From: Bacteroidales bacterium
GTDB lineage: Bacteria; Bacteroidota; Bacteroidia; Bacteroidales; JAOZVK01
Direction: 5' to 3'
Assembly (NCBI GenBank): GCA_029938185.1
Contig: JAOZVK010000003.1
Span: 1-41,182, forward strand
DNA: 41,182 bases
The translations under genes were made by a program, and so were the position numbers. This document shows, piece after piece, positions 80 to 39,326 of the stretch; within the stretch, counting starts at the first letter, position 1; each line of letters opens with the position of its first letter. The notes under the pieces are model-generated. The model saw only the letters and a list, made by a program, of their open reading frames with translations, was not told the origin of the DNA and made no database searches.

Positions 80-2056
80 TTAGAATTTTTCATAATCATC
101 ATCAACGTCCTGAGACATTTTTAAATCAATTCCGTCGTTTTCAACAAGATTAGCTTCCTTATTTAAATTTGATACTGGTGTATTTGACTTAATACTGGTA
201 TTTAATGAGTATTCTTGTTTCTCAAATTTGAAATAACTAATAATTTCTTTTAATTGTTCAGCCTGTGCTGAAAGTTCTTCCGCATTGCTTGCCATTTCTT
301 CACTTGATGCAGCATTTTGTTGGGTTATATTATTCAGTTGTTGAACAGAACTATTTACTTGATTTGCTCCATTAGTTTGTTCAGTAATTGATGCAGAAAT
401 TTCTTGAACAAGCTGTGTCGTTTTTTGAACTTGCGGTAACATTTCAGTAAGTTTTTGATTTGTTTTTTCGGTTGCAATAAGTGATTTTTTAGCAAAACCA
501 ACAATTTCATTTGCCGCCTTTCTACTTCTCTCAGCAAGTTTTTGTACTTCGTTAGCTACAACAGCAAATCCTTTTCCATGCTTACCTGCACGTGCAGCTT
601 CTACTGCTGCATTCAAAGCCAGAATATTGGTTTGAAAAGCTATATCATTTACAATTTGTATTTTTTCTGAAATTTGTTTATTCATTTCAACCGCTTCCAA
701 TGATTGATTACTTACCTCCCTGATACTCTTACTTGCCAATTTTGATATTTTTTCGGTTTCCAAAGAGCTATCTGAGTTTTGTTGAAAAGAAGATGTCATT
801 TCCTCAACAGTTGATGATACTTCTTCAACAGATGAAGCTTGTTCGCTAGTGGCTGAAGATAAATCTTGAGAACCATTGTTAAGTTGTTCCGATGCTGAAG
901 CTATCTGTAACGAAGCATTACGAATTTTAGTTACGATATTTTTAAGATTTACTGACATATTAAGCATTGAATGATAAATTCCCACACTACGATTATCTAT
1001 TTGATAGTTTCCAGTAAGGTCTCCTTCTGAAATCTTTTTTGTAATTTTGGCAACTACATCTGGTTCGCCTCCAAGCTGTAACATAGTTCTATTGGTTACA
1101 ATAATAATTATTAGTAGTGAAATAATTATAGCAAGTAAGGTAAATACTATCAATATACTTTTTGTTAAAGTTGCGGTACTTTCTGCATCTATTTTACGTT
1201 GTTTTAATAACTCGGCTTCAGCATTAATAAAAACAGAAATCAAAGACCGTATTTTATCCATATATTGCTTTCCTTTTTTCTTAGCAAATTCAGAATATAA
1301 ATCTTCCATTTTTGATGACTTCATTGCCGATTTATTTATTGTTATTGCTTTTTCTGCATAACTATTTATCCATATATTAGCAGCATTTTGTACTGATTGT
1401 CTTATATTGTAACTATCAAAATGTTTGTTAAGTTGTGATTTAGCACTATAGTAAGGTTCAAGATATTCTTCTTTATTGTTCAATAAAAAACCTCTTAGCC
1501 CAGTTTCCATATTAATCATATCTATAATGATTTGGTTTTGTGCTCCTTGCGAAAGCCCCGATGAAGCAACAAGATTTTGTATATTGTCCATGTTACGCTT
1601 TCCATTCCCAGATGCTATTAAATTAAATAATTCAACTCTATAATCTTCGCCAGCTTTAATATTCTTTCGTAAACTAATATATTTATTGGCAAGCTTGCTT
1701 TTCCATAAATTGGCTTGCTGTTCTATTTCGTTAAGACGTACCACCTGAGTAGAATTATCATTTACAATAATTTTCATTTTGCCAATAAGGGTAGTAAAGT
1801 TACTGCTACCATTTTTGTAGGGTTCCAAAAATTCGTCTTCTCCTGTAACGGCAAAGCCACGCATTCCTGTTTCTTGATCAATCATATACATTAGCAGTTC
1901 ATTTCCGTTATCAATTACTCTATAGGTGTGTTCAACCAATTTTGAGTTTTTTAATAACGAGTTAATACTGAAAAATACAACAACTGCAATAAAAAACATT
2001 AATGATAATGCAATAATATTAGGAATTAATAATTGTGTTCTAAGTTTTAGTTTCAT
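80..2056 (-). CDS. Methyl-accepting chemotaxis protein with duplicated CHASE3-type sensor region
   Basis: Two TM helices, two CHASE3-like motifs ([14 protein letters not shown]; [14 protein letters not shown]), MCP hairpin [20 protein letters not shown]. Start moved from the track's 2101 to the ATG at 2056. Confidence 0.93.
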
Positions 2057-5198: not shown

Positions 5199-5658
5199 TA
5201 CAATATTCCATATATTATTTTCATATCCGTTTCAGGAAATTTTATTTGAGTTTCATTTAAAGTTTTACATAATTTTTTTAATGCAATATCATCTCGTTTT
5301 TTTGGTTGATGGTGAATATTTATATACAATATATATATTTGATTATCTACTTTGATATCAGTATTTTATTAAAAAAACTGAACAAAAGAGACCTTCTTTC
5401 CTTTGATTTTTTAGTAATTTTCTACACTATTGAGACAAGTGCTGTTTCAGCTCAGTATGCTATCATCTTAATAGTATCAATAAATTCAGAACTCACAAAA
5501 ACAGTTCTCTTTTTCAAAAACAATCGCAAGTTAAAAGTTAATAAAGTTTACTTGAAAGTTATTCATAAACTAAAAAAATTAAATGTGGAATGTAAAAAAT
5601 AAAATATTTCTATGATAACTAAAGTATTACTTTGAATATTATTCTGTATAATACGTTC

Positions 5659-5763
5659 TAAGGTCTTCGACCTATTTAACGTTGCTTACGCATCACACTA
5701 ATACTCTAACAATATGTAATCTAACAAAATATAAATGTTGAAAAACTTTTGTAACAGTACTTA
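5659..5763 (+). mobile_element. MITE family A copy
   Basis: taaggtcttcgacctattta...aaaaacttttgtaacagtactta. Confidence 0.8.
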
Positions 5764-9667: not shown

Positions 9668-9877
9668 TAAGTACTGTTATAAAGGTTTTTCGACATTTAC
9701 TTATTCATAACTTACTGATTAAATTATCTTTGTAAGGTCTTCGACCTATTTAATATTGCTTACGCAAGATATATAATAAACGGTATTTCAAAAAGTAAGC
9801 TCAATACTAAATAGGTAAAAACTTTTGTATGGGTGCTTACTAATGCGTAAACAACTATAAATAGGTCGAAGACCTTA
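9668..9877. mobile_element. Nested pair of family A MITEs (inner + copy 9733-9839 inside a - copy)
   Basis: Removing the inner copy and one TA restores an outer copy colinear with 12132-12237. Confidence 0.85.
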
Positions 9878-9898
9878 AAACTAAAATACTAAGAACAA

Positions 9899-10754
9899 AT
9901 GATAGAACAAAGAGAAATATTTGAACATAATGAAAGCCTCGGAGTACCACCTACAACAATTGATAAAGATTGGATACTTGGTCATTTTTTAAATGCAATG
10001 TTCCAATTTGAAGACATAAAGCACAATTTTGTTTTCAAAGGCGGTACATGCTTGAAGAAAGGTTATTTTCCAGATTATAGATTTTCTGAAGATTTGGATT
10101 TTACCCTTTTGGATAATCAATTTTTAGTTGATAAAAAACTAATAAATAAACTCATCAAACTTACTACACAAAATAGTGCTGCAAAGTTCTATTGTGAAAG
10201 TATAAAGGAGCAAATATATAAAGATATTAAACAAGGATATGAAGTGATAATTAAGTTTTGGGGTGCCAACCATAAACCGAATCAAAGACCATTACCACCA
10301 AAACGTTGGCAAACAAAAATTAAATTAGATATTAATTTTACTGAAAAGTTACTTTGTGTTCCTTTACTTAAAAAAATTATACATCCTTTATTCTGATGAA
10401 ATCAAAATTACGAGTTCTGTTCCTACTTATTCATATTTTGAGATTGTAGCAGAAAAACTTCGTACACTTGTACAAAGAAATCGTCCAAGAGATGTCTATG
10501 ATAATTGGTACTTTTCCAATAATATAAAATCGAAAGATTTTATTGAAATTAGAAAAATATTGATGGAGAAAGCCAAAAATAAGGATGTAAATATTTCGAA
10601 TGTAAATCAATTTGTAAATGATAAAAAGAGGAAAAAAAATAAACGTGCATGGGAAAGTAGCTTAAAACATCAAATTTCTGAAAAAAATCTTCCTGAATTT
10701 GATATTGCTTATGATAATTTATATCCATTTATAAAAAATATTTTAAACTCTTAA
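9899..10754 (+). pseudogene. abiEii: AbiEii nucleotidyltransferase toxin, frameshifted (ORFs 9899-10396 and 10356-10754)
   Basis: KDW, FKGGTCL, RFSEDLDF motifs in the first ORF and AEKL, RPRDVYD in the second. An extra T in catcctttattct (about 10386-10388) breaks ...IIHPYSDEIK. Confidence 0.85.
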
Positions 10755-11693: not shown

Positions 11694-12134
11694 ATGCAAA
11701 AATACGTAAATCAACTAATTGGAGACATACACAAAGCAAAAAATAATGTTCCAGCAAAACCATACTACGAAGTACCTCCCGAAATGGAAGGTATTGAATA
11801 TATTTTGGAGTGGGAAAACAATCCTGAAATACTTATGAGTAAACTATTTAAGCTTGAAAGCTATTTATTTCCACCAACAGATAAGCTTAATACTATACAA
11901 ATGCAGGCAATTACCGATGCTATACTTGAAATGTGGGCTGTATTTAATTTCGAGGCAACTTTTCCAGACAAACTACCTGTGTTGTATCAATACGAACAAC
12001 TTGTAAAACAATTAGATAAAAAGGTAAGGTGGACAAGTGAAGGAGTAAATGTATTTTGGTCATGGTGCGATATAGAGCCAAAAACATGCCCTTTTCCAGA
12101 AGAGTTTTGCGATTGTAAAGATTTGCCCGATTAA
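11694..12134 (+). CDS. Hypothetical protein with C-terminal Cys cluster (paralog of 20471 and 38806)
   Basis: MQKYVNQLI, FPP, W..FNF...FPD.LP and C-x5-CPFP-x3-C-x-C shared with the two 143-aa genes. Confidence 0.8.
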   Translation: MQKYVNQLIGDIHKAKNNVPAKPYYEVPPEMEGIEYILEWENNPEILMSKLFKLESYLFPPTDKLNTIQMQAITDAILEMWAVFNFEATFPDKLPVLYQYEQLVKQLDKKVRWTSEGVNVFWSWCDIEPKTCPFPEEFCDCKDLPD

Positions 12135-12237
12135 GGTCTTCGACCTATTTATAGTTGCTTACACATTAGTATAAAAACAACTTTATCAGAAAGTTACGAA
12201 TAAGTAAATGTCGAAAAACTTTTGTAAGACTACTTAA
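12132..12237 (+). mobile_element. MITE family A copy overlapping the upstream stop codon
   Basis: taaggtcttcgacctattta...gtcgaaaaacttttgtaagactactta. Confidence 0.85.
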
Positions 12238-12309
12238 TAAAAAAAGTAATTTTTAAAAATCTATTTTTTTTATATACTTACTGGATATTTTTCAAATAAC
12301 ATTAATTCA

Positions 12310-12981
12310 ATGAGAATACATTTAAAATTATCAAAAAATACAAAACTTGTACCTTATAGTCACCAACATAAACTTGTGGGAGCTATACACAAATGGCTTG
12401 GCAAAAATGATTTGCATGGAAAAATATCTTTATATTCATTTTCTCGCTTGCAAGGTGGCAGTAGCAATAAAAAAGGTCTTGATTTCAAGAATGGAGCAAA
12501 TTGGTTTGTTAGTTTCTATAACGATGATTTTTTGAAAGATATAGTTTTTGGTTTAATGAAAGACAAGCCAGAGATTTTTAACGGTATGCAGGTTGAAACT
12601 GTCACAATTCAAGAAACACCGGATTTTACTAATACCACTTATTTCAAAATAGCAAGTCCTATCCTGATAAAGAGAAACGATGGGGGTTTTATAAAGCATT
12701 TTTTGTATACCGACAAAGAAGCACCCGAACTGCTTACTGAAACACTCCGCAGCAAAATGCAACAAGTAGGTTTAACAGATGATAGTTTGAAAATAGAATT
12801 TGACACCAATTACTCTAAAGCATCTGCCAAACTAATAGACTACAAAGGAATTAAAAACAAAACAAGTTGGTGTCCAGTTATAATTCACAGAAAACCAGAA
12901 ACTAAAGCTTTTGCTTGGAACGTGGGAGTGGGGGAATTCTACTGGTGTGGGTTTTGGGGCGTTAATTTAGGTTTTATTTAA
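12310..12981 (+). CDS. cas6: Cas6 endoribonuclease copy 1, with +1 frameshift in the C-terminal Gly loop (pseudogene or sequence error)
   Basis: Near-identical to 30046-30705; five G at 12930-12934 versus four G at 30666-30669. Confidence 0.88.
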   Translation: MRIHLKLSKNTKLVPYSHQHKLVGAIHKWLGKNDLHGKISLYSFSRLQGGSSNKKGLDFKNGANWFVSFYNDDFLKDIVFGLMKDKPEIFNGMQVETVTIQETPDFTNTTYFKIASPILIKRNDGGFIKHFLYTDKEAPELLTETLRSKMQQVGLTDDSLKIEFDTNYSKASAKLIDYKGIKNKTSWCPVIIHRKPETKAFAWNVGVGEFYWCGFWGVNLGFI

Positions 12982-12991
12982 ATATTTGTAT

Positions 12992-15430
12992 ATGAAAAAC
13001 AAGATTAATAGTTATTATAATAAAATATTAGAATTTCCGCCTTACGAATATCAAGCAGAAGTAGCTGAATTGTTATTATCTGGAAAAAATATTATTCTAT
13101 CGGTGCCAACTGGTGCAGGGAAAACTTGGGCTTCGATAATACCATTTTTAATTGCAAAACAAGATGAATCAATAAATTTCCCTCAAAAATTAATATACAG
13201 TTTGCCATTGCGAACATTAACTAATTCTATTCATCAAGACATAACAAAAACTTTAGAAAAATTTCAAGAATTTAATGATTTAGCCTCAAAACAAACAGGA
13301 GAATACAGTAATGATAAATATTTTGAGAAAGATATTGTTTTTTCAACAATCGACCAGACACTCAGCAACTTTCTTTCATTTCCATTAACGCTCTCCAAAC
13401 AACAAGCAAATATTAATGCAGGTGCAGTAATTGGCAGTTACTTAGTATTCGATGAGTTTCATTTATTAGACCCAAATCTTTCAATGGCTACAACTCTCGG
13501 CACACTAAGAATGTTATTAAATTTGACAAGGTTTTGCATAATGACAGCAACAATGAGCGATGAATTTATTAATTTCATACAAAATGAAAGTGGACTTGAA
13601 AATATTGAAATTGTAACTTTAAACAATTTTCCTAATGATATTCCTAAAATTAAATCATTAATAGCTCCGAAAAATGTGACAAAAAAAGAAATAATAATTT
13701 CAAAAGATACTATCAATGCAGAAAATATTATAAAGTTGCACAAAAACAAAACAATTGTAATTTGTAATCGTGTTGAAACTGCTCAAAGTTTATTTGTTGA
13801 AATTGAAAAAATCAAAAACCCGGGAACTAAATTATTTTGTATTCACGGACGCTTTTTTGATAAAGACCGCAAGGAAAAAGAGGAAAAAGTAAAAGAATAT
13901 TTCGAAAAAGACAGTAAAAAAAATGCGATACTAATATCTACGCAAGTTATTGAAGCTGGTATGGATATTTCATGCGAAGTTTTGCATACGCAAGTGTCGC
14001 CAGTAAATTCATTTTTGCAAAGAGTTGGGCGTTGTGCAAGATACGCAAACGAAACAGGAAAAATATTTGTTTACGACATATTAACTCTTGATGAAAAGTT
14101 GAAATTAAAAGATACACTTTCAGGTGATAATTTTGATAAAAATGAAATTAAAAAACTAAATAACAAATATTTACCATACAATCAAAATTTATGTGAAAAA
14201 ACTTTTGAAATATTGAGAATAACTCCAAACATTGATGAAAAAGTTGCAGAAAGTTTAGTAAATGAAATAATGACTCCGCAGGAACAAGAAGATACTGATA
14301 ATATAAAAAGTAATCTATTCAATCAAGTTGAAATTAGAAAATCATGGAATGATTGCGAGAAAAATAATTACCGAAATACAATAAGAGATATTCAAAATGT
14401 TGATTTGGTAATTATTAATAATGAAATTAAAAATGATGTTGCTTTACAACCTTATAGTTACGAATGTATTGGACTTTATAAATGGACTTTTATAGGTAAA
14501 TGGAAAAAGATTATAAAAGAAGATTATAATTCAGAAAATGATGATTATCCTGTTTTAAAACGTGGAGAAAATAATATTTTTGATTTTGGAGAGGAAGAAT
14601 ATAAATTGGAACAAGCTGATTATGATAACATCACTGATAGTAGGTTTTATATAAATTCAGATTTTTTTAATTATGACGGCAAAATTGGTTTGAATTTTAT
14701 TAAAATAGGAAATGAAGTATCAAGTAAATCTATTCAAAATGATAAAAATGAGGATTTTAAACCCTTAAAATCAGATACTTTTATTGAACATAATACAACG
14801 ATGTTAAATTATTACCGAGAAAATTTCAAACCTAAAATGAATTTCATTATCAAAGAATTACCTAAATTTATGCAAGTTGAAAATATTGACTTCAACAAAT
14901 TGATTGAAATAATGATTGTAATGCACGATTACGGTAAATTGAACAAAGATTGGCAAACTCCAATAAAAAAATATCAAAGCTTAAAAACAGGAGAAGTAAT
15001 AACAGAGGCTTTGGCACATAGCGATTTTGATAGAACAAAGCCAGATGATATTGAGTTAAGCAAAAAATGTGGCAAACGCCCTGAACATTCAGCAATTGGA
15101 GCATTTGCTTTATATGTAATGCTGAATAGACAAGGGTATGAGGAAAAATTAATTGACCCTGTATGCAGTGCAATTTCCAAGCATCATAATGCAGGAACTA
15201 TTGTAAAAAAAATAAAAGGATATTCTGTAACGAAAAATGATTATAATTCAATTGAAAATTTATTAAAGGATATTAAATTCAGCATGAGACCACTTTCTGA
15301 ATTGAAAGATAAGAGTTTTGCTTTTTCACTATATTCTGACGACAAAAAAATTAAACAAGAAATTTTAGAATTTCTATTATCAAGAATATTAAGAATTTGC
15401 GACCAACGAGCAACTGAAAACATAAAATAA
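12992..15430 (+). CDS. cas3: Cas3 helicase with C-terminal HD nuclease
   Basis: PTGAGKT, DEFH, TAT, QRVGRCAR at the N-terminus; H...HDYGK...HS...HH...D at the C-terminus. Confidence 0.93.
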   Translation: MKNKINSYYNKILEFPPYEYQAEVAELLLSGKNIILSVPTGAGKTWASIIPFLIAKQDESINFPQKLIYSLPLRTLTNSIHQDITKTLEKFQEFNDLASKQTGEYSNDKYFEKDIVFSTIDQTLSNFLSFPLTLSKQQANINAGAVIGSYLVFDEFHLLDPNLSMATTLGTLRMLLNLTRFCIMTATMSDEFINFIQNESGLENIEIVTLNNFPNDIPKIKSLIAPKNVTKKEIIISKDTINAENIIKLHKNKTIVICNRVETAQSLFVEIEKIKNPGTKLFCIHGRFFDKDRKEKEEKVKEYFEKDSKKNAILISTQVIEAGMDISCEVLHTQVSPVNSFLQRVGRCARYANETGKIFVYDILTLDEKLKLKDTLSGDNFDKNEIKKLNNKYLPYNQNLCEKTFEILRITPNIDEKVAESLVNEIMTPQEQEDTDNIKSNLFNQVEIRKSWNDCEKNNYRNTIRDIQNVDLVIINNEIKNDVALQPYSYECIGLYKWTFIGKWKKIIKEDYNSENDDYPVLKRGENNIFDFGEEEYKLEQADYDNITDSRFYINSDFFNYDGKIGLNFIKIGNEVSSKSIQNDKNEDFKPLKSDTFIEHNTTMLNYYRENFKPKMNFIIKELPKFMQVENIDFNKLIEIMIVMHDYGKLNKDWQTPIKKYQSLKTGEVITEALAHSDFDRTKPDDIELSKKCGKRPEHSAIGAFALYVMLNRQGYEEKLIDPVCSAISKHHNAGTIVKKIKGYSVTKNDYNSIENLLKDIKFSMRPLSELKDKSFAFSLYSDDKKIKQEILEFLLSRILRICDQRATENIK

Positions 15431-15443
15431 TCAAAAAATAGTT

Positions 15444-15486
15444 CCTATTATATTTTCTCTTTTTTAATATATTCGCAATATTTTTG
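15444..15486 (+). promoter_or_regulatory. Promoter region with CCT plus protospacer matching the downstream crRNA-like spacer
   Basis: CCT 15444-15446; 15447-15464 matches 15521-15538 at 17/18; candidate -7 boxes TATATTCG (15468) and TATTTTTG (15479). Confidence 0.65.
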
Positions 15487-15488
15487 TA

Positions 15489-15567
15489 AAACTAAAAAGC
15501 AGGCAGTTCGGAATTGAAAAATTATATTTTGTCTTTTTAATTGAACCATATGCTTGTTTTTTAGTTT
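15489..15567 (+). ncRNA. Stem-clamped split-repeat CRISPR-like regulatory RNA 1 (CreA/CreR-like)
   Basis: 17-bp stem 15489-15505/15551-15567 (two G-U) enclosing GGAATTGAAAA, a spacer of about 13 nt, and TTTTAATTGAACCA. Confidence 0.7.
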
Positions 15568-15589
15568 CTTGATATATGAAAATTACAGA

Positions 15590-15994
15590 ATGAATAAAAT
15601 TGAAAAATTAATACAATTGCGTGATGATATTTTTGCATGGGCAGAAATAGAATTGAAAGATACAATCGTATTCAATACTGATGCGAATATGGAAATACTA
15701 ATAAATAAGAGAGGCTTAAAACATACTTTAAAAGGAAAAAGCTACAAAAAGGTTGATATGCTTGAAAAAAATGAAGCAACAATTATGTCTGTTAAATATT
15801 TGAACCATTTTCTTGAAAGTTCTAAGTATGTTAGATTTGAAGAGGATAGCAGACAAAGAAACAATCTTATAGGCTTTCATATTTTTGCAAATATTTTCAA
15901 CTATAAAGAGAATAAATATAATGTTAAAATAATAGTAAGGGAAACAAAAGAGAAAGTTTATTTTTATGACCAAGCATTATTTGAAAAAAAATAA
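15590..15994 (+). CDS. Small LPD3-like (BECR-fold) putative RNase toxin
   Basis: 134 aa; I.INKRGLKHT...FHIF...Y.VKIIVRE...FYD pattern recalled for LPD3-type domains (not HMM-verified); lies between cas3 and cas8. Confidence 0.6.
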   Translation: MNKIEKLIQLRDDIFAWAEIELKDTIVFNTDANMEILINKRGLKHTLKGKSYKKVDMLEKNEATIMSVKYLNHFLESSKYVRFEEDSRQRNNLIGFHIFANIFNYKENKYNVKIIVRETKEKVYFYDQALFEKK

Positions 15995-16115
15995 CCCGAC
16001 CACCGAGCATCTTACGTGTTTTCGGTTAGTAGGGTCGGGGTTTATGGTACCGAGCATCTAACGTGTTTTCGGTTATACTAATGCAAATTTACAACTATAT
16101 AATATAAAAATCAAA
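15984..16115 (-). ncRNA. Tandem-hairpin small RNA gene copy 1 (promoter, two 27-nt repeats, terminator)
   Basis: Minus-strand TTTG(16115-16112)-N20-TAAATTTG(16091-16084); repeats 16002-16028 and 16049-16075 (26/27 identical); CCCGACC/GGTCGGG stem followed by a U-run. Confidence 0.68.
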
Positions 16116-16120
16116 TTTTA

Positions 16121-17872
16121 ATGAAAGAATTTAAAATATATAAACAAACAGGTACTTATGCTGAAACTCTTGAAGCTTATGGTTTGGCAAATATTATAGA
16201 AAAAATATATGCTCAGTTAAATATTGATGATAATACAAAAATATTTGATTCAGGGCAATATTACAGTGTAATAGCTAATAGTCCTCTTTCAAGTGAAATG
16301 ATAAATAAGTTAAGTTATTTTCATGTTCTGAAATATATTGCAAGAAAGAATAAAGAAGGAAAACTCAATTTACCCGAAGGTCTGAATTATGATAATTCAG
16401 TTTTCCGCTATGATGAGCAGAAAAATTTAATAGAACAAAGACGAGCTGAAATAAACGAAGCCTATAAAAAGTTTTCGGGTAAAGAAAAAAATAAGCATAG
16501 GCGAAAAAGATTAAAAGAAATTGATAAAAAGTATAGCAATGAAAGTGCTACAAAAATAGATATTGAATTTGATGTTTACAGTCAGGCAAGCACTCCAAAT
16601 CAACTTAGTGGATTCCAAAAAATTTATAATAATTTTTATTTGAATAAAGATAACTTTAATATTCTAATAAGTGATATTTTAAAATATTATTCTAAAAATA
16701 ATAATTTAGAATATCCCAAATTAATAAAAGATAAAAAACTTGTAAATTTCTCTAAAACAATAACAGCAACACAGCTTTATAATCCAAACCAAGGAAAAGG
16801 ATTAAATAAAGCAAAAGCAAATGGTATTAACGGTTTTAATTTTAAATCATCTTGGATTAGTGAAACTTTAAAAACGACTGGAGCTGTTAACAGTATGATT
16901 TGTAAATCAGTTAAAGTCGGCAGTAGTTATGATTTAAAATTATTTGTTCCCGAATTTAATGATATTCACATGTCAAAGAAAACAGAAATTATAAATGAGT
17001 TCAAAAAACATTTAAAAGGGAACACACCTATAAAAATAGATATTTTAAACATTATTATTTTAATAAATAAGTTACTTGAAAATTCTGAAAAAAATCAAGA
17101 CTATTTCGGAAAAGCAAAAAATAAAATCAAAGGTTTATATTCTGTATATCAAAAAGATTTAGGACAGAATAAAGCTGTTTCAAATATTGCATTTATTCAA
17201 ACTCCTGATTTTATAATTATTAATGATAAAAATGATATTGATACATGGCTTGAAATTCTAAATGAACAAATATCAATTATAAGCAGTATTGATGAACTTG
17301 GTAGTTCGGTGCAAGCATTAATGGCATATCGTAATTTTATAAATGCTTCGCATCTTGAAAGTTTTTTCATATTTTCATATTGGTATGCAGCTTATCTTAT
17401 GCAATTTTTTTCTGATAAAAAAATATATATAAAACAATTTACTTACAAAATATTAACTAAATTTTATAATCACATGGATAAAAAAGGAAACTTAATGAAT
17501 ATTATTAATAATGAAGGATTTCAAGCTATTGCAAAAGCAATAAGAAACAGCACTGTTACCTTACAATATGTAAAATCAAAAGGATTAAAACCAAAATTTG
17601 ACATTAGATACGGTGTTGCTCAATCCTTGCAAAATAAATCTAAAACATCGGATAATTTAGCGACTTACATAGGTAGCTTTATAGCATCTTTTAACGCTGA
17701 ATCAGGTATGAAAGCAGAAAAGAAAGAGTTTAGGAAGCGTGTAACTGAAACAGAATTAACAGAATTTTATTCTTTGTTAGATAATAATTCTTCAAAATTA
17801 GTCGGAGCATTACTTGCTTCTTATAGTTTTGCAAAAAGTAAAAATGATGATTCAAATAAAGAAACGAAATAA
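16121..17872 (+). CDS. cas8: Cas8 large subunit of I-A-like (DevR) module 2; candidate internal Cas11 from ATG 17474 or 17495
   Basis: 583 aa upstream of DevR-type cas7; TATQLYNPNQGKG motif; helical C-terminus GFQAIAKAIRNST...VGALLASY. Confidence 0.75.
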   Translation: MKEFKIYKQTGTYAETLEAYGLANIIEKIYAQLNIDDNTKIFDSGQYYSVIANSPLSSEMINKLSYFHVLKYIARKNKEGKLNLPEGLNYDNSVFRYDEQKNLIEQRRAEINEAYKKFSGKEKNKHRRKRLKEIDKKYSNESATKIDIEFDVYSQASTPNQLSGFQKIYNNFYLNKDNFNILISDILKYYSKNNNLEYPKLIKDKKLVNFSKTITATQLYNPNQGKGLNKAKANGINGFNFKSSWISETLKTTGAVNSMICKSVKVGSSYDLKLFVPEFNDIHMSKKTEIINEFKKHLKGNTPIKIDILNIIILINKLLENSEKNQDYFGKAKNKIKGLYSVYQKDLGQNKAVSNIAFIQTPDFIIINDKNDIDTWLEILNEQISIISSIDELGSSVQALMAYRNFINASHLESFFIFSYWYAAYLMQFFSDKKIYIKQFTYKILTKFYNHMDKKGNLMNIINNEGFQAIAKAIRNSTVTLQYVKSKGLKPKFDIRYGVAQSLQNKSKTSDNLATYIGSFIASFNAESGMKAEKKEFRKRVTETELTEFYSLLDNNSSKLVGALLASYSFAKSKNDDSNKETK

Positions 17873-17898
17873 TAATTAACTTTTAAAATCTATATAAA

Positions 17899-18876
17899 AT
17901 GTCAAAAAAAATAGCATCAATATCAGTAAGCGGCAGAATGACGCTGAATATGCATTCTCTCAATAACGAAGGAGGAGAAGGAAATCAAATAATTACACGC
18001 CAATTAACAATAATAGGCAATGACGGCGAAGAACATACAGTAAATGGTATTAGCGGAGATATGTTTAAACATATCCATGTCGGACATCTTATTAATAAAG
18101 CAAAAGAAAAGAAATTACCGCTTTGTACGAATTGTAAAATAGCAAACCCAAACAGATTATCAAGTGGAGAAGATTTAGGGACACATTTTAAAAATGAAAA
18201 GGATTTAAAAAAGTTAGGTGATGATAAGATTGCCAATGCAATAATTGAGAAATGTATCATTGATGATACACATGGTGTTTTAGTTACTTCGATAGGAAAA
18301 CAAAATAAAAATCACGCCAGAAAATCTATTGTCGAATTTGCGTGGACAGTTGGAATTCCTGATAGAAATAATACTGAAACTTATATTCATACAAAAATAG
18401 TTTCGGATGCGGGTAATAAAGAAAAAGGGGCTTCAAGTAACGAAGGACAAAATATTTTTCATCGCCCTGCAAATCACGGAGTTTATGCATTTATATGCAA
18501 TGTTGATGTTTACAGACTTTCGTATAACGATGTAACAAGATCATATCCTGAAATTGATAACCGAAATGACAGATACAAAGCTCTTTTAAGCAGTTTATTA
18601 AATACATTTTTAAATCCTAAAGGAGCAATGACAAGCACACAAAAACCGCATATTACAGATTTTGAAGGTGTTGTTTCAATATCTTCAAATTCGACTCCTG
18701 CTCCAACTGTAAGCCCTATTAATGAAGACTATAAAGCAGAAATAATTACAGTAAAAGACAACCTAAATAAGATTGAAGGCTCTAAAACTATTGAAGTAAA
18801 AGAATTTAATGGACTTGGGCAATTATCAAGTATTTTTGAAGAACTAATAAAAGCTGAACCCTATAAAATAAATTAA
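17899..18876 (+). CDS. cas7: Cas7 of the DevR/Cst2/Csa2 family, module 2
   Basis: HSLNNEGGEGN, ISGDMFKH, CxxC, CIIDDTHG, RKSIVEF motifs. Confidence 0.9.
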   Translation: MSKKIASISVSGRMTLNMHSLNNEGGEGNQIITRQLTIIGNDGEEHTVNGISGDMFKHIHVGHLINKAKEKKLPLCTNCKIANPNRLSSGEDLGTHFKNEKDLKKLGDDKIANAIIEKCIIDDTHGVLVTSIGKQNKNHARKSIVEFAWTVGIPDRNNTETYIHTKIVSDAGNKEKGASSNEGQNIFHRPANHGVYAFICNVDVYRLSYNDVTRSYPEIDNRNDRYKALLSSLLNTFLNPKGAMTSTQKPHITDFEGVVSISSNSTPAPTVSPINEDYKAEIITVKDNLNKIEGSKTIEVKEFNGLGQLSSIFEELIKAEPYKIN

Positions 18877-18877
18877 T

Positions 18878-19552
18878 ATGAAATTTTCAGCAATATTTAA
18901 ACCGACAAGTTTATTTTCACTAAAAGATAGTAATTCAACTAATTCGGGAGCGAAATCATTATTTTTACCTTCGCCTTATTCCATAAAAATGGCAATAATT
19001 AATCAAGCTATAACAGCTGGTGATCAATTAAAATTACTATCTGCTAAAAAAAGTAAGGAATTTGAGTATATCAGTAAGGCGGAGGTTTCTTTTAACATTA
19101 ACAACGGATTTTGTGTAAATAATTTGTTTATTAAAATTCAAAGATTAAAAAGGGAAGGGGTTGGTTATCAGTCGACTGTCAGTTTTAGAGAATTTATTCA
19201 TATTCCAGATACAATAGAAATTATATTTAATGTCGTTAATGGTGAGGCTAAATTATTCTTAATGAATTATATTCATAAAATTAATTATTTTGGTAAACGA
19301 GCTTCATTTTTTCAATTTTTAAGATATAATGAAATTCCTGAAAAAGGTAATGTATTGGATTTTAAAACCGGAGAGATTACAGGAGGTATTATTCAACAAT
19401 ATGATGATTTTCCAAAAAATGCAACGTTTGACAAAATAAATAGTTACTCAGGAGCAAGAATTACAAGAGATAAAAAAGTTTTACTGATTCCGATAGTACT
19501 AAAAAATGCCTCAAAGTCTTTTAGTTCTTATAAACTTAAAAATGAAATATAA
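18878..19552 (+). CDS. cas5: Cas5, module 2
   Basis: SLFSLK...SLFLPSPYSIKMA N-terminus and INYFGKR Gly loop; follows cas7. Confidence 0.8.
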   Translation: MKFSAIFKPTSLFSLKDSNSTNSGAKSLFLPSPYSIKMAIINQAITAGDQLKLLSAKKSKEFEYISKAEVSFNINNGFCVNNLFIKIQRLKREGVGYQSTVSFREFIHIPDTIEIIFNVVNGEAKLFLMNYIHKINYFGKRASFFQFLRYNEIPEKGNVLDFKTGEITGGIIQQYDDFPKNATFDKINSYSGARITRDKKVLLIPIVLKNASKSFSSYKLKNEI

Positions 19553-19657
19553 GTTGTATAATAGAAGATAATTTGAATAATCTTTTGTAGTAATAAAATT
19601 GAATATTCTGTATAGGAAAATTACCACAAAAGATTATTATTTTTTAAACAGAAATTA

Positions 19658-19762
19658 ATGAATATCGAAAAAACAAGTTCAAAATTATTTGTTGATGTAA
19701 AACAAATGATTTCAAATGCTATACGAAAAGTTGCTGTAACTGCCAATAGTGAATTGATTTTG
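19658..19762 (+). pseudogene. 5' fragment of a yhcG/DUF1016 duplicate
   Basis: Nearly identical to 37423-37527, with shared upstream sequence from about 19570. Confidence 0.85.
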
Positions 19763-19952
19763 AACAAGAAAACAAAGCAAGACCAATAATTGAAGAAAAT
19801 ATAAATTGAGTTGATACTCTTATAACACTTTCAGCTGGTGGATATGTAGAAACTAAAGCAGAAAAAGCTGATGCTTTGGACTTAGCAGAAACTAAATTGA
19901 TTGAATTAATGCATAAGTTTGATTATCAGAATCAATTGAACAGAAAATGTTA
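19751..19952 (+). pseudogene. Gene fragment homologous to 37133-37327; possible C-terminus of PGING-type Cas7 (Csp1)
   Basis: ..KARPIIEENI*..TLSAGGYVETKAEKADALDLAETKLIELMHKFDYQNQL with an internal stop; family assignment is from recall only. Confidence 0.45.
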
Positions 19953-20112
19953 AATTTAAAATTCGTTGTTTTTTTGTAAAAATCTTAAAAATTTAATTTC
20001 GCACTTACAGTGCTTTTTTCTATTTTACATTTTTTTTCTACCATAATTTTGCATCTGCGATGCTACTTTAAGAATCCAATTTGCATAAATGATGCTGCTT
20101 AAATTGACAAAA

Positions 20113-20176
20113 GAGCCATAGGCTCAATATTATGGTAGAAATTACAAATTCATAATAAAAACAGAACCGTAGGTTC
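20113..20176. repeat. REP/IS200-type hairpin pair upstream of the tnpA relic
   Basis: GAGCC-ATA-GGCTC (20113-20125) and GAACC-GTA-GGTTC (20164-20176). Confidence 0.55.
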
Positions 20177-20229
20177 GATATTATGTTTGAATTTGATATT
20201 ATTAATCAATAAAAATAACACAATAATAT

Positions 20230-20325
20230 ATGGCAAATACATACACACAATTAAATGTTCATGCCGTTTTTTCGGTTCTTGGAAGAGAAAATATGTTGTT
20301 AGATAAATTTCGTCCAGAATTATTC
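20230..20325 (+). pseudogene. tnpA: IS200/IS605 TnpA (Y1 HUH) N-terminal relic, interrupted by a MITE
   Basis: MANTYTQLNVHAVFSVLGRENMLLDKFRPELF, a typical IS200-like TnpA N-terminus. Confidence 0.7.
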
Positions 20326-20434
20326 GGTTTATCAAGTTTATTTACGCATAAATTTATTATTGCTTTTTAATTAACTGATAATCAATATTGGTAAAACTAT
20401 TTATGCATAAGTAGCATTAAAGGCTCGAAGAGCC
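20326..20434. mobile_element. MITE family B, 109 bp, GG...CC ends, 8-bp target duplication
   Basis: AATTATTC at 20318-20325 and 20435-20442; the empty site is present at 38770-38777. Confidence 0.85.
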
Positions 20435-20470
20435 AATTATTCAAATATTTTACTTTTTTAAAATTATAAA

Positions 20471-20902
20471 ATGGAACAATATATTAAACAACTAATTAAT
20501 GATTTGAGAGATGCAGCACAGCGTACACGACCTATGAAAATGGAACTTGCTCCCGATTTGGAAGTTGTTAGAGGAGCAGAAGAGTATTTGTATGGCACGC
20601 AACATAAACTCGGTTCTCTTTTTGGTATTGAAAAAACAGCTTTTCCGCCTCTTACAAAGCTTAATAATAATCAATTAGAACAACTTGTACCCGAAATTGA
20701 ACGTTTATGGGCTAAATTTAATTTTTATCCTGTTTTTCCGGACAATTTGCCTGCAATTTATCGCTATAAACTACTGATTGATAAATGGGACGAGCCTATG
20801 CAATATGTAACATCAGGAAGCATGTATATTGAATTTTGTGAATACGAAACTGAAAATTGTCCTTTTCCAAAAGAGTATTGCATGTGTACCGATTTTGACT
20901 AA
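20471..20902 (+). CDS. Hypothetical Cys-cluster protein, 143 aa (same protein as 38806)
   Basis: Identical translation to 38806-39237; ends FCEYETENCPFPKEYCMC. Confidence 0.8.
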   Translation: MEQYIKQLINDLRDAAQRTRPMKMELAPDLEVVRGAEEYLYGTQHKLGSLFGIEKTAFPPLTKLNNNQLEQLVPEIERLWAKFNFYPVFPDNLPAIYRYKLLIDKWDEPMQYVTSGSMYIEFCEYETENCPFPKEYCMCTDFD

Positions 20903-21003
20903 GTCTTTGACCTATTTAATGTGGCTTACACATTTTTATAAATTACTATAAAGTAGCCAATTGTACAAAAACAAATGCCGAAAAACTTTTGTAAGACTAC
21001 TTA
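20900..21003 (+). mobile_element. MITE family A copy overlapping the stop codon
   Basis: taagtctttgacctattta...gccgaaaaacttttgtaagactactta. Confidence 0.8.
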
Positions 21004-21011
21004 ATAAATTG

Positions 21012-21159
21012 GGCTACCAGTTTTAAGTTAGACGCTTTTTAAACGCAAAGACACACAAAGTTTAACGCAAAGTTTCGCAAAGTTTTGCTAATCTTTACTT
21101 TAATTCTATGGTTAAAACTAATTGAAAAAACAAGACTGTCCAACTTCTGACGGGTAGCC
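21012..21159. mobile_element. MITE family C, 148 bp, IS1595-like ends, 8-bp target duplication
   Basis: TIRs GGCTACCAGTTTTAAGTTAGAC / GGCTACCCGTCAGAAGTTGGAC (17/22); ATAAATTG at 21004-21011 and 21160-21167. Confidence 0.85.
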
Positions 21160-21209
21160 ATAAATTGCAAATGGGATTTAATTTTCAAAATATAAATAAA
21201 TGAATATTG

Positions 21210-21339
21210 AAAAATAACCCGACCACCGAGCATCTTACGTGTTTTAGGTTAGTAGAGTCGGGATTTATGGTACCGAGCATCTTGATGTGTTTTCGGTTAT
21301 ACTAATGCAAATTTACAATTATATGATATTAAAATCAAA
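21210..21339 (-). ncRNA. Tandem-hairpin small RNA gene copy 2 (orphan, partly decayed)
   Basis: Homologous to 15984-16115; repeats 21225-21251 and 21272-21299; promoter TTTG-N20-TAAATTTG conserved. Confidence 0.6.
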
Positions 21340-21344
21340 TTTTA

Positions 21345-22244
21345 ATGAAAGAACATGAAAAAATTCAAAGACTAATTTATTTATTAAAATTATTGTCATC
21401 AAATATAGGATATTCACACAAGATGCTTGCCGAAAAAATTGGCGTAGTAGAAAGAACAATAAGAAGATACATAAATTCTTGTGAAAAAGCAGGCTTAGTT
21501 CTTAATAAAACAAACGGTTATTTTCGTTTAGAAAAAAACACACCTCATTTTAGAGAAATAAGTTCATTACTACACTTTTCCGATGAGGAGGCTGTTTTAC
21601 TTAACGAGGCGATAAATAAAATTGAGTTAAATTCAACTTCTACAATTAATTTAAGAAACAAACTATTTGCTCTATACAATTCAGACAGAATAAACTATCC
21701 AATTATAAAGAAAGAAGATTCTGGAAATGTAAAATTGATAATTGAAGCAATCAGAGCTAAAAAACAAATTAGAGTGATTAATTATAAATCATCTAACAGT
21801 GGAACTGTAATGGACAGGATTGTTGAACCTTTCGATTTTACAACAAACTATATTCATATTTGGGCTTATGAAAATGCATATTCAAAAAATTTCCTGTTTC
21901 GGGTTTCACGTATTGAAAATGTTGAGGTTTTAAAAGATGATTGGACAAATGAAAACAATCATAAAAAAGGAATAACCGATGTATTTAGAATGAGTGGAGA
22001 TACTAAAACCCCATTTGAATTAAAATTAACTACAGCCGGATACAATTATTTAATAGAACAATACCCTATGGCAAAACAATATATTGAAAAAAATAAGAAT
22101 AATATATATTTTTTGAACCATTGGTATGCTAATTTTCATGGAATAACAAAATTTATTTTGAGTGCAATGGATGAAGTTGAAATTATAAGTAACGAAAAAT
22201 TAAGAGATTACATAAATAATAAAATAAAAAACAAAATTTTTTAA
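21345..22244 (+). CDS. HTH-WYL domain transcriptional regulator
   Basis: N-terminal HTH (LAEKIGVVERTIRRYI), R.VEPF...IWAY...FRVSRI WYL domain, C-terminal WCX-like region. Confidence 0.92.
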   Translation: MKEHEKIQRLIYLLKLLSSNIGYSHKMLAEKIGVVERTIRRYINSCEKAGLVLNKTNGYFRLEKNTPHFREISSLLHFSDEEAVLLNEAINKIELNSTSTINLRNKLFALYNSDRINYPIIKKEDSGNVKLIIEAIRAKKQIRVINYKSSNSGTVMDRIVEPFDFTTNYIHIWAYENAYSKNFLFRVSRIENVEVLKDDWTNENNHKKGITDVFRMSGDTKTPFELKLTTAGYNYLIEQYPMAKQYIEKNKNNIYFLNHWYANFHGITKFILSAMDEVEIISNEKLRDYINNKIKNKIF

Positions 22245-29709: not shown

Positions 29710-29814
29710 TAAGTAGTCTAACAAAAGTTTTTCGACATTTGTTTTCGCACAATTAATTATATGACAGTAATTTATTAAAATGTGTAAGACACATTAAATA
29801 GGTCGAAGACCTTA
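29710..29814 (-). mobile_element. MITE family A copy
   Basis: taagtagtctaacaaaagtttttcgac...taaataggtcgaagacctta. Confidence 0.82.
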
Positions 29815-29876
29815 ATGTTTTTCGATTTATGTAAAGTGTAAAAAATGCCAAAAGTGAAAAAAAAACCAAATTATTA

Positions 29877-29916
29877 CCTAAGAAATTTGTTATTAAAGTA
29901 AACAATATTATCTTTG
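29877..29916 (+). promoter_or_regulatory. Module 4 promoter overlapped by CCT plus protospacer
   Basis: TTTG(29886-29889)-N19-TATCTTTG(29909-29916); CCT 29877-29879; 29880-29901 matches spacer 29966-29987 at 19/22. Confidence 0.8.
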
Positions 29917-29942
29917 CATAATTATTTGTTAAAATAGATTTT

Positions 29943-30017
29943 GGTAAGTACACAGGAATTGAAAAAAGAAATTTGTATTTAATGTAATTTCTACTTTAAT
30001 CGAACCATGTACTTACC
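29943..30017 (+). ncRNA. Stem-clamped split-repeat CRISPR-like regulatory RNA 2 (CreR-like)
   Basis: Perfect 10-bp stem GGTAAGTACA/TGTACTTACC enclosing CAGGAATTGAAAA, a 28-nt spacer and CTTTAATCGAACCA; T-run follows. Confidence 0.78.
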
Positions 30018-30045
30018 GTTTTTTTATAAGATAAAAATTGTATAA

Positions 30046-30705
30046 ATGAGAATACATTTAAAATTATCAAAAAATACAAAACTTGTACCCTATAGTCACC
30101 AACATAAACTTGTGGGAGCTATACACAAATGGCTTGGCAAAAATGATTTGCATGGAAAAATATCTTTATATTCATTTTCTCGCTTGCAAGGTGGCAGTAG
30201 CAATAAAAAAGGTCTTGATTTCAAGAATGGAGCAAATTGGTTTGTTAGTTTCTATAACGATGATTTTTTGAAAGATATAGTTTTTGGTTTAATGAAAGAC
30301 AAGCCAGAGATTTTTAACGGTATGCAGGTTGAAACTGTCACAATTCAAGAAACACCGGATTTTACTAATACCACTTATTTCAAAATAGCAAGTCCTATCC
30401 TGATAAAGAGAAACGATGGGGGTTTTATAAAGCATTTTTTGTATACCGACAAAGAAGCACCCGAACTGCTTACTGAAACACTCCGCAGCAAAATGCAACA
30501 AGTAGGTTTAACAGATGATAGTTTGAAAATAGAATTTGACACCAATTACTCTAAAGCATCTGCCAAACTAATAGACTACAAAGGAATTAAAAACAAAACA
30601 AGTTGGTGTCCAGTTATAATTCACGGAAAACCAGAAACTAAGGCTTTTGCTTGGAATGTGGGAGTGGGGAGTTCTACTGGTGTTGGTTTTGGGGCTTTAA
30701 TTTAA
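30046..30705 (+). CDS. cas6: Cas6 copy 2 (intact)
   Basis: Gly loop GVGSSTGVGFG; near-identical to 12310. Confidence 0.94.
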   Translation: MRIHLKLSKNTKLVPYSHQHKLVGAIHKWLGKNDLHGKISLYSFSRLQGGSSNKKGLDFKNGANWFVSFYNDDFLKDIVFGLMKDKPEIFNGMQVETVTIQETPDFTNTTYFKIASPILIKRNDGGFIKHFLYTDKEAPELLTETLRSKMQQVGLTDDSLKIEFDTNYSKASAKLIDYKGIKNKTSWCPVIIHGKPETKAFAWNVGVGSSTGVGFGALI

Positions 30706-38529: not shown

Positions 38530-38635
38530 TATATAGTCTAACAAAAATTTTTTCGACATTTGTTTTCGCACAATTAATTATATGACAACTGTTTATAAGA
38601 ATGCGCAAGTCACATTAAATAGGTCGAAGCCCTTA
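38530..38635 (-). mobile_element. MITE family A copy
   Basis: Close to the 29710 copy; ends taaataggtcgaagccctta. Confidence 0.8.
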
Positions 38636-38681
38636 TGTTATAGCTTAACAAAGTGTCGATTTTATACGATAAGCTACTTAT

Positions 38682-38804
38682 ATGGCAAATACATACACAC
38701 AATTAAATGTTCATGCCGTTTTTTCGGTTCTTGGAAGAGAAAATTTATTGGTAGATAAATTTCGTCCAAAATTATTCAAATATTTTACTTTTTTTAAATT
38801 ATAA
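38682..38804 (+). pseudogene. tnpA: IS200/IS605 TnpA N-terminal relic, copy 2
   Basis: MANTYTQLNVHAVFSVLGRENLLVDKFRPKLFKYFTFFKL*. Confidence 0.7.
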
Positions 38805-38805
38805 T

Positions 38806-39237
38806 ATGGAACAATATATTAAACAACTAATTAATGATTTGAGAGATGCAGCACAGCGTACACGACCTATGAAAATGGAACTTGCTCCCGATTTGGAAGT
38901 TGTTAGAGGAGCAGAAGAGTATTTGTATGGCACGCAACATAAACTCGGTTCTCTTTTTGGTATTGAAAAAACAGCTTTTCCGCCTCTTACAAAGCTTAAT
39001 AATAATCAATTAGAACAACTTGTACCCGAAATTGAACGTTTATGGGCTAAATTTAATTTTTATCCTGTTTTTCCGGACAATTTGCCTGCAATTTATCGCT
39101 ATAAACTACTGATTGATAAATGGGACGAGCCTATGCAATATGTAACATCAGGAAGCATGTATATTGAATTTTGTGAATACGAAACTGAAAATTGTCCTTT
39201 TCCAAAAGAGTATTGCATGTGTACAGATTTTGACTAA
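38806..39237 (+). CDS. Hypothetical Cys-cluster protein, 143 aa
   Basis: Identical translation to 20471-20902. Confidence 0.8.
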   Translation: MEQYIKQLINDLRDAAQRTRPMKMELAPDLEVVRGAEEYLYGTQHKLGSLFGIEKTAFPPLTKLNNNQLEQLVPEIERLWAKFNFYPVFPDNLPAIYRYKLLIDKWDEPMQYVTSGSMYIEFCEYETENCPFPKEYCMCTDFD

Positions 39238-39326
39238 GGTCTTCGACTTATTTAATGTGGCTTACGCGTTCTTTTAACACTCTAACAATACGCAGTTTAA
39301 CAAAATGTAAATATCAAAAAACTTTT
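39235..39326 (+). mobile_element. MITE family A copy, right end truncated, overlapping the stop codon
   Basis: taaggtcttcgacttattta...aaaaaactttt. Confidence 0.72.

Follow-up and report, generated by a model that had tools for sequence, protein, structure and literature searches.

A predicted convergent two-hairpin small RNA that accompanies LPD3-like genes in Bacteroidales, a candidate antitoxin at a type I-A-like CRISPR locus

In type III toxin-antitoxin systems the antitoxin is a tandem array of direct repeats placed upstream of the toxin gene and on the same strand, with a terminator between the two, and the toxins (ToxN/AbiQ, CptN and TenpN) are endoribonucleases that cut the repeat RNA into units and are held inactive in an RNA-protein complex. 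In the type I pairs that overlap at their 3' ends, such as txpA/RatA and bsrG/SR4 of Bacillus subtilis, the toxins are typically short, hydrophobic, membrane-active peptides, SymE/SymR being a pair with a nuclease-like toxin. Toxins of the BECR (barnase/EndoU/colicin/RelE) fold are, to our knowledge, neutralized by protein antitoxins or immunity proteins and not by RNA. Control of a toxin by CRISPR components is described in the CrePA preprint, where creA is found together with a phage-derived protein toxin, CreP, in the gap between cas3 and csy1 (10.1101/2024.01.05.574328), and autorepression by CreR and related mini-arrays is the subject of further literature (10.1101/2023.03.10.532045, 10.1101/2023.03.03.530964). 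The present work concerns the complete 41-kb contig JAOZVK010000003.1 (41,182 nucleotides) of the Bacteroidales bacterium assembly GCA_029938185.1, hereafter the window, and in it a predicted small-RNA gene that converges on a gene for an LPD3-like protein; LPD3 is a domain of unknown function from polyvalent proteins of phages and conjugative elements (PMC5512222). A sequence-only reading of this DNA had proposed that the RNA might be a type III-like antitoxin, either protein-binding or antisense, that acts together with CRISPR repression on a putative toxin. It is highly probable that the element is a real, independently promoted and structured small-RNA gene functionally tied to the LPD3-like gene, and there is about an even chance that its RNA is an antitoxin by any mechanism.

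The predicted RNA of the first copy covers about 94 nt of the minus strand (15984–16077), the 5' end being placed 7 nt past the -7 box and the 3' end in the U-tract, so that both ends are read from the sequence. A pattern match to the Bacteroidetes-type promoter, whose consensus in Bacteroides is TTTG followed by TAnnTTTG, lies immediately before it on the same strand (16084–16115), with TTTG at 16115–16112, a 20-nt spacer and the -7 box TAAATTTG at 16091–16084. By itself this pattern is not rare in the window (6 matches against 3.8 expected); two of the six matches are the two copies of the element. The body of the RNA holds two 27-nt repeats (16002–16028 and 16049–16075) that are identical at 26 of 27 positions, lie 20 nt apart with a period of 47 nt and carry ACCGA/TCGGT arms each. 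In the minimum-energy fold the 5' repeat forms hairpin A (16049–16075, minus strand, helices 1 and 2), with 5-bp arms, an internal loop of 3 nt against 1 nt, a CAC/GUG inner stem, a bulged A and the loop GUUA. Hairpin B (16002–16028, minus strand, helices 4 and 5) has the same design with the loop GUAA, and it is nested in an outer stem (15995–16039, minus strand, helix 3) that pairs CCCGACC (RNA 16039–16033) with GGUCGGG (16001–15995). This stem is followed by the terminator U-tract UUAUUUUUUUU (15984–15994, minus strand), the single site returned by a terminator scan of 15300–16400, which overlaps the last codons and the TAA stop (15992–15994) of the LPD3-like gene (15590–15994, plus strand, 134 aa from its ATG; Pfam PF18798, 8.8e-18). 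The next ORF opens with an ATG at 16121, 44 nt from the inferred RNA start at 16077, and matches a Cas8a model (PADLOC, 2.9e-51). The promoter, the paired repeats, the nesting of the distal repeat with a U-run over the gene end and the adjacent cas8 start were thus all found as the sequence-only reading had described them. A covariance model of the element, R1, scores this copy with 107.6 bits (15981–16088).

The search for relatives reached about 1,000 sampled genomes plus pattern scans and gave 11 distinct copies from eight sources, namely metagenome-assembled genomes (MAGs) of Bacteroidales and Lentimicrobiaceae and one metagenome contig (genomes and loci are cited by our handles, such as G142 or L027). 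Among 201 genomes of the same order searched at the DNA level, three carry true homologues, one of the three in two copies, and they belong to different GTDB families. A pattern scan of 185,579 species genomes returned 104 stretches, five of which are the element (four already found and a new one in a Lentimicrobiaceae MAG); the remaining stretches are chance matches, mostly in high-GC genomes. With a stricter pattern, a metagenome collection gave two stretches, one with the same sequence as G023 and the other new, and G335 and two G204 loci were added through a search with the LPD3-like protein. The Rfam search proposed earlier assigned the element to no known family: cmscan of 15400–21600 against Rfam 15 at E <= 10 matched neither window copy and gave two chance snoRNA rows elsewhere.

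Two hairpins are present in 10 of the 11 copies, the exception being the locus G204:C415 with a single one. In an alignment of these ten copies over a structure of 23 pairs, 96.5% of the 230 cells are paired, and seven of the 23 pairs carry changes at both positions, 15 cells in total. Not one of 500 column shuffles matched the observed pairing and covariation, and slid partners were 21–40% paired; RNAalifold independently recovers the same helices, save the short inner helix of the first hairpin. The element is therefore far from chance, and its helices are held by compensatory change. The outer stem is 98.6% paired, with a change from A-U to C-G on both sides in G204a and a G-U pair in G335. 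The arms covary, but the CAC/GUG inner helix stays constant in 19 of 20 hairpins, and the triplet of the internal loop is identical in both hairpins at eight of ten loci and varies between loci. The one-hairpin relative, beside an LPD3-like gene of 46% identity, keeps the arms, the 3/1 loop and CAC/GUG, under a UUCG cap. Single-sequence folding gave weak z-scores (-1.43 for the minus strand and -2.05 for the plus strand), so the case for structure rests on the covariation. Concerted evolution of the two hairpins was also considered, and the excess of identity within a locus is small (0.82, against 0.76 between loci).

The same alignment bears on a role at the DNA level, in which the element has no dedicated RNA function and serves as a terminator or insulator between operons, or as a set of operator sites, for instance for a WYL protein. 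The element does lie between transcription units, one of its copies abuts a WYL-HTH gene, and each repeat has inverted 5-bp arms spaced by 15 nt, as do some dimeric operators. Within one genome, however, the arms differ in sequence and remain complementary, with AUUGG/CCAAU beside ACCGG/CCGGU in G142 and ACCGA/UCGGU beside ACUGG/CCAGU in G099a, which speaks for base pairing rather than for an operator code read by a protein; binding sites of a dimeric regulator are for this reason unlikely. The inward position of the promoter is conserved in all 11 copies, the GNRA caps are strand-specific, and most element loci have no WYL gene in the DNA covered, so that a purely DNA-level role is judged very improbable. 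Two further candidates were discarded. A mini-CRISPR origin of the 27-nt repeats was rejected because they are unlike the genome's CRISPR repeats, of 30 nt on contig C21 and 37 nt on contig C122, and a dispersed repeat of the REP or MITE kind was rejected because the 5.7-Mb assembly holds two copies, both in the window, and no third.

Three features place the predicted transcript on the minus strand. On that strand a -7 box of the form TAnnTTTG/A stands at a fixed distance from the first hairpin in 11/11 copies; it reads TAAATTTG in both window copies, TACCTTTA in G099a and G335, and TATCTTTG in G023, G142, G099b, L027, L124, G204a and G204b. A TTTG motif lies 19–20 nt upstream of the box in eight of nine copies (G204a and G204b stand outside this count), G099b having TTTC. 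The apical loops are GNRA tetraloops in 17 of 20 hairpins when read on the minus strand (GAAA, GCAA, GUAA), the plus-strand reading being UUUC, UUGC and UUAC. Finally, the 9 nt past the outer stem contain 7–8 T on the minus strand in 10/10 copies, against 2–5 on the plus strand, and the A-run that encodes them is kept in the two copies without an LPD3 ORF, so it belongs to the element. Box position, loop type and U-tract together decide the call, wobble pairs and folding energy being undecisive.

The element follows LPD3-like genes with great regularity. Protein matches in a sample of 401 genomes of the order came from six genomes and seven loci (leaving out the weak row G313, E 8.4e-5, inside an 805-aa frame), and at 7/7 the element stands straight after the stop codon. 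Adding L027 and L124 brings the copies that stand behind an LPD3-like gene to nine of 11; the gene is intact at seven of these and a pseudogene at two (G023 and G204:C540), and the overlap is convergent in 9/9. The ORFs overlap the RNA by about 11 nt in most copies, and in 4 of the 14 members of the LPD3-like family, itself drawn from 5.8 billion proteins, the ORF runs 11 codons into the element. The conservation of a discrete predicted minus-strand small-RNA gene with promoter, two structured repeats and terminator, and its tie to the LPD3-like family, are thus supported. The earlier question of whether homologs generally carry downstream convergent repeats has a positive answer at the seven loci of the order, which does not extend further: model R1 gave no match in the DNA 3' of more distant LPD3-like genes in G438, G440 and G642, from a phylum sample of 401 genomes. 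At one of these genes, a distant solo LPD3-like gene in G438 (L148, 1860–2010), an unrelated GC-rich stretch follows (folding z -2.67), which carries a TATATTTG box on the minus strand and, across the stop codon, a strong terminator hairpin. The layout is the same and the predicted RNA a different one; this is a single unverified lead.

The surroundings of the pair differ from locus to locus. The order cas3-LPD3-RNA-cas8a-csa2-cas5a is shared by the window, G142 and G335, and G099 has cas6-PBECR3-LPD3-RNA. Outside cas loci, the pair lies between MutS2 upstream and a 126-aa ORF of no assigned family followed by a GMC oxidoreductase gene downstream in L124, in a defence island in G204:C540 and between sugar-modifying genes in G204:C415. 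Such a range of contexts indicates that the two genes are moved together. In the G099 locus (L018, G099:C508), the PBECR3 gene (1384–1830, minus strand), for a phage barnase/EndoU/colicin/RelE-like nuclease, lies after cas6 and directly upstream of the LPD3-like gene and its RNA.

Two of the 11 copies are orphans and lie upstream of WYL genes, one in G099a and the other in the window itself. Here the whole element of about 150 nt, which the earlier reading had not reported, recurs at 21210–21360 with 92–96% identity to the first copy; the claim that would have dissolved the linkage, a genome-wide dispersed repeat, finds no counterpart in these two copies. The predicted RNA of this second copy (21210–21301, minus strand, 94.9 bits with R1) has no LPD3-like gene beside it, and its promoter (21308–21339, minus strand: TTTG, 20 nt, TAAATTTG) ends 5 nt before the ATG of the WYL-HTH regulator gene (21345) that heads the type I-D module and lies directly downstream of the copy. 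It is slightly decayed, with a U-C mismatch in hairpin B, a G-U pair in the outer stem, and a 1-nt insertion and a non-GNRA loop in hairpin A. The duplicated segment includes a cas8a-type ATGAAAGAA, which is now the start of the WYL ORF. At L017 (G099:C374, about 2380–2445), the DNA just upstream of an orphan element by a WYL gene resembles, by eye, the last LPD3-like codons, which suggests that the orphans stem from a duplication that took in the 3' end of LPD3 together with the RNA gene.

These neighbourhoods would also be compatible with an antisense regulator of the leader of cas8a (first copy) or of the WYL gene (second copy), acting by transcriptional interference or by duplex formation, with the LPD3 linkage due to shared descent. 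Downstream of the element stands cas8a in the window, G142 and G335, remnants of a cas8a start in L027 and G023, and a WYL gene in the window and in G099a, which fits the orphans. The second copy also carries the cas8a-type start mentioned above. No plus-strand TAnnTTTG was seen in the element and the gap between RNA start and cas8a ATG is 44 nt, so any cas8a message would start upstream and be antisense to the RNA. On the other side, L124, G204:C540 and G204:C415 have neither cas8a nor WYL downstream, the constant neighbour is the LPD3-like gene, and the conserved hairpin design is left unexplained. A leader regulator is therefore considered unlikely.

The reading that we prefer, tentatively and at less than an even chance, is that the RNA is the cognate, protein-sequestering antitoxin of the LPD3-like protein. 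In such a scenario the RNA and the LPD3-like gene would form one mobile two-gene module, and the minus-strand RNA of about 90 nt, with its intrinsic terminator over the LPD3-like stop codon, would be the antitoxin of a basic, RNase-like LPD3 protein. Both hairpins, with their covarying arms, 3/1 loop, invariant CAC/GUG and tetraloop cap, would be the binding sites that sequester the protein in a type III-like manner. The overlap of the convergent RNA with the message 3' end would add an antisense component, and in cas-embedded copies the mini-CRISPR before the LPD3-like gene would add Cascade-dependent transcriptional repression, as is proposed for CrePA. Binding of a protein is favoured because the CAC/GUG helix is invariant, the 3/1 loop is kept and the loop triplet is common to both hairpins in eight of ten loci, features that antisense pairing alone would not require. 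A rare and patchy distribution, with 14 family proteins among 5.8 billion, two pseudogenized LPD3-like genes and two RNA orphans, is, by analogy, what a toxin-antitoxin-like history might leave.

The comparison with type III is mixed. As in ToxIN, CptIN and TenpIN, a predicted small RNA of direct repeats lies by the gene of a basic, RNase-like protein, in rare, patchy and mobile occurrences and in defence contexts, and the proposed action, an RNA that sequesters a protein, would be analogous. Unlike in those systems, the RNA gene lies downstream and is convergent in all nine LPD3-linked copies; the repeats number two (one in G204:C415) instead of a longer array and are mostly GNRA-capped hairpins; and the LPD3-like protein matches Pfam LPD3 only, resembles BECR/RelE folds weakly and shows no match to a known type III toxin family. 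The type III assignment of the sequence-only reading does not hold in this respect, given the downstream convergent layout and the low repeat number.

Convergence over the end of the toxin gene is instead the mark of the type I class with 3' overlap, with which the element shares, as far as gene geometry goes, a predicted small RNA that has its own strong promoter and intrinsic terminator; the cis-encoded antisense overlap with the putative toxin transcript is likewise seen in the gene geometry, the U-tract lying over the last codons and the stop. Accordingly, an antisense antitoxin can be proposed whose RNA pairs with the 3' end or 3' untranslated region of the LPD3 message, after which the duplex would be cut or the message destabilized; LPD3 would be lowered relative to the downstream genes, and the hairpins would serve RNA stability and first contact, not protein binding. 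The convergent overlap in 9/9 LPD3-linked copies speaks for it, and so do the four family members whose ORF extends into the element by 11 codons. On the plus strand the stem lacks a clear U-tract behind it, and the LPD3 message thus probably reads into the region complementary to the RNA. The recurrence of the layout with a different sequence in G438 hints that layout matters more than sequence, but this is a single unverified case in which R1 found no match. Pairing would leave unexplained the CAC/GUG helix, the 3/1 loop and the GNRA caps, whose size would not permit loop-loop kissing, and the hairpin features are conserved beyond what pairing needs over an ORF overlap of about 11 nt in most copies. 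The protein, of 134 aa, soluble and basic and with a globular alpha/beta model, is also unlike the short membrane peptides of typical type I toxins. On balance an antisense antitoxin appears somewhat unlikely. In its proposed working the element is closest to these two classes of antitoxin, but it departs from each in a defining feature: from type III in gene order and strand, from type I in the kind of toxin.

The protein itself gives some indication of what the sequestered partner might be. The LPD3-like family has a pI of 9.0–9.7 in 13 of 14 members (9.26 for the 134-aa window protein), and the residues G42, K44-H45-T-L-K-G-K-S, N61-E62-A63, E84, D86, R90, N92 and F125-Y-D-Q-A-L are invariant in the family alignment. 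Its AlphaFold model (pLDDT 95.4) consists of a helix, a beta hairpin, two helices and then a four-stranded sheet. An exhaustive structure aligner placed CdiA-CT tRNases at the top of its matches (6cp9_A, Z 5.5, rmsd 3.4, 95 residues aligned; 7m5f_C, Z 5.3), followed by BrnT, MqsR, several RelE proteins, colicin D and YoeB at Z 3.7–4.6, the range listed for BECR/RelE-type folds being Z 3.6–5.5; no listed match names ToxN, an absence from the list that does not exclude it. In a language-model search of the ESM Atlas that excluded LPD3, the nearest clusters were PBECR3 (0.91, with 182–186 shared features). The model thus resembles the BECR toxins (RelE, BrnT, colicin D/E5, CdiA-CT, PBECR3) in having helices before a four-stranded sheet, with the invariant Lys-His in a short helix ahead of the long helix. 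The BECR preprint assigns a Lys-His pair to colicin-like members that include PBECR3 (10.64898/2026.08.28.747851). Two different methods, each weak, support a BECR-like RNase, which is therefore treated as a lead, and from its model the partner looks like an RNA-acting toxin. What sets it apart from the BECR toxins is the RNA partner proposed here, together with a fold likeness that is weak (Z <= 5.5) and a comparison with one PBECR3 protein that was not significant. Other searches with the protein returned nothing further: sequence comparison with solved structures gave no meaningful match (E 0.049 and 0.086), the profile against the 146-aa ORF of the window at 11694–12134 was not significant with hhalign, PADLOC gave no match, and Pfam at E <= 0.01 gave PF18798 LPD3 only. 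In a full-text literature search no study came up of an RNA that partners LPD3 or the BECR/PBECR toxins, although preprint supplements may list such loci.

A CRISPR-derived layer lies on the other side of the LPD3-like gene. The gap between cas3 and this gene holds a mini-array with its target (15447–15564, plus strand); it is separate from the small-RNA gene and derived from the 30-nt repeat of contig C21. The end of its first repeat, GGAATTGAAAA (15510–15520), equals the 3' end of that 30-nt CRISPR repeat, and it is followed by the pseudo-spacer ATTATATTTTGTC of 13–15 nt (15521–15533) and a degenerate repeat (15534–15564). The target, ATTATATTTTCTCTT (15447–15461), lies 60 nt further upstream, directly after a CCT, matches the pseudo-spacer at 14 of 15 positions and falls at the -33 region of the LPD3-side promoter with the -7 box TATTTTTG (15479–15486), all on the plus strand. 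The same layout is found in G142, G335 and L027, where spacer and target changes go together. The repeat-derived mini-array with a matching upstream target bears out the CRISPR-repression layer that had been suggested: the element at 15510–15564 has the CreA/CreR feature of repeat-like sequences flanking a pseudo-spacer with a promoter match by a protospacer-adjacent motif (PAM), and the 27-nt repeats do not have it. It resembles CrePA in that the LPD3-like gene stands in the cas3-cas8 gap behind a degenerate mini-CRISPR whose pseudo-spacer matches its own promoter and, with LPD3 also a domain of phages and conjugative elements (PMC5512222), in having a counterpart of the phage-derived CreP. 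It departs from CreTA, CrePA and CreR in that the small RNA is not a mini-CRISPR and also accompanies LPD3-like genes without one, at 5 of 9 loci: L124 and G204:C415 (intact gene, outside cas), G099 (cas6-PBECR3), and G023 and G204:C540 (pseudogenes). The RNA is therefore the more constant companion of the LPD3-like gene. The accessible part of the CrePA preprint (10.1101/2024.01.05.574328) describes no second, convergent RNA partner. A three-part guard in a bacterial type I-A-like locus, with a BECR-like RNase toxin, Cascade and mini-CRISPR transcriptional repression and a convergent two-hairpin RNA antitoxin, is unlikely to hold as a whole.

Several observations weigh against a protein-sequestering antitoxin. 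Minus-strand transcription is itself deduced from the sequence, and other measures of strand do not help: G-U cells number 6 in the minus-strand and 5 in the plus-strand alignment, with 96.5% and 96.1% of cells paired, so wobble pairs cannot call the strand, folding energy favours the minus strand in five copies and the plus strand in four with one tie, and for the first window copy the plus strand gives the better fold. In G023 the LPD3-like gene is broken but the RNA beside it has stayed fully intact, and orphan copies stand by WYL genes in two genomes, so the RNA may also act apart from LPD3. The copies are all rather closely related, and their gene order may be conserved by inheritance rather than by constraint. 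Known type III antitoxins are encoded upstream of the toxin in the same orientation, and a fixed convergent overlap is more typical of antisense control. As to the partner, LPD3 has no known function in the accessible part of its defining paper (PMC5512222), all fold matches have Z below 8 and possibly reflect just a common arrangement by the aligner's own guidance, Foldseek against the PDB gave nothing at E <= 0.001, and aligning the LPD3-like profile to one PBECR3 protein with hhalign gave no significant score.

The rest of the window offers some observations on the setting. It carries four type I effector modules in a row (6045–41061) and no CRISPR array, the genome's arrays being on other contigs, with the 30-nt repeat on C21 and the 37-nt repeat on C122. 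The modules are a I-B set (cas8b, cas7, cas5b) interrupted by AbiEi/AbiEii genes, a I-A-like set (cas6, cas3, then cas8a, csa2, cas5a), a I-D set with the WYL regulator (csc2, csc1-like, cas3', cas6) and a second I-B-like set with cas3, cas4 and cas1. Upstream of the cas6 gene of the fourth module a second mini-array (29877–30030) has GGAATTGAAAA, a pseudo-spacer of about 29 nt and then TTTAATCGAACC; the first 11 nt of its spacer match AAGAAATTTGT at 29880–29890 after CCT, over the TTTG of a promoter TTTG..TATCTTTG (29886–29916), and by its sequence it resembles a CreR-type autorepressor. Repeats of about 37 nt that bear a palindrome (core AGGTCTTCGACCT) stand in both orientations between the cassettes of the cas region, at 2925–2961, 5656–5692, 9730–9766, 9842–9878, 12129–12165, 20896–20932, 29779–29815, 38600–38636 and 39232–39268. 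The AbiEii nucleotidyltransferase toxin gene (9899–10754) is read as two ORFs of 165 and 132 aa, which overlap and correspond to the first and second halves of the Pfam model; the gene is probably frameshifted. A 143-aa ORF of no assigned family occurs twice with 99% DNA identity, at 20435–20734 after the I-A-like module and at 38770–39069 before cas4, and other long duplications link the modules, such as the 5' parts of cas6 at 12298–12597 and 30034–30333 (98%).

Even without the toxin reading, the element is an undescribed, covariation-supported predicted small RNA of Bacteroidales that is directly testable. If the antitoxin reading is true, it would extend the toxin-antitoxin repertoire by one RNA family and one protein family, both new, and provide the first functional handle on the LPD3 domain of phage and plasmid polyvalent proteins. 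The three-part guard, if true, would be a CRISPR-repressed protein toxin outside type I-F, with the first type III-like RNA antitoxin of such layout and fold and the first RNA immunity factor for a BECR-type RNase. The antitoxin reading, if true, would also mean that CRISPR-repressed guard toxins can have an RNA antidote of their own, which would bear on how CRISPR-Cas loci resist loss or inhibition.

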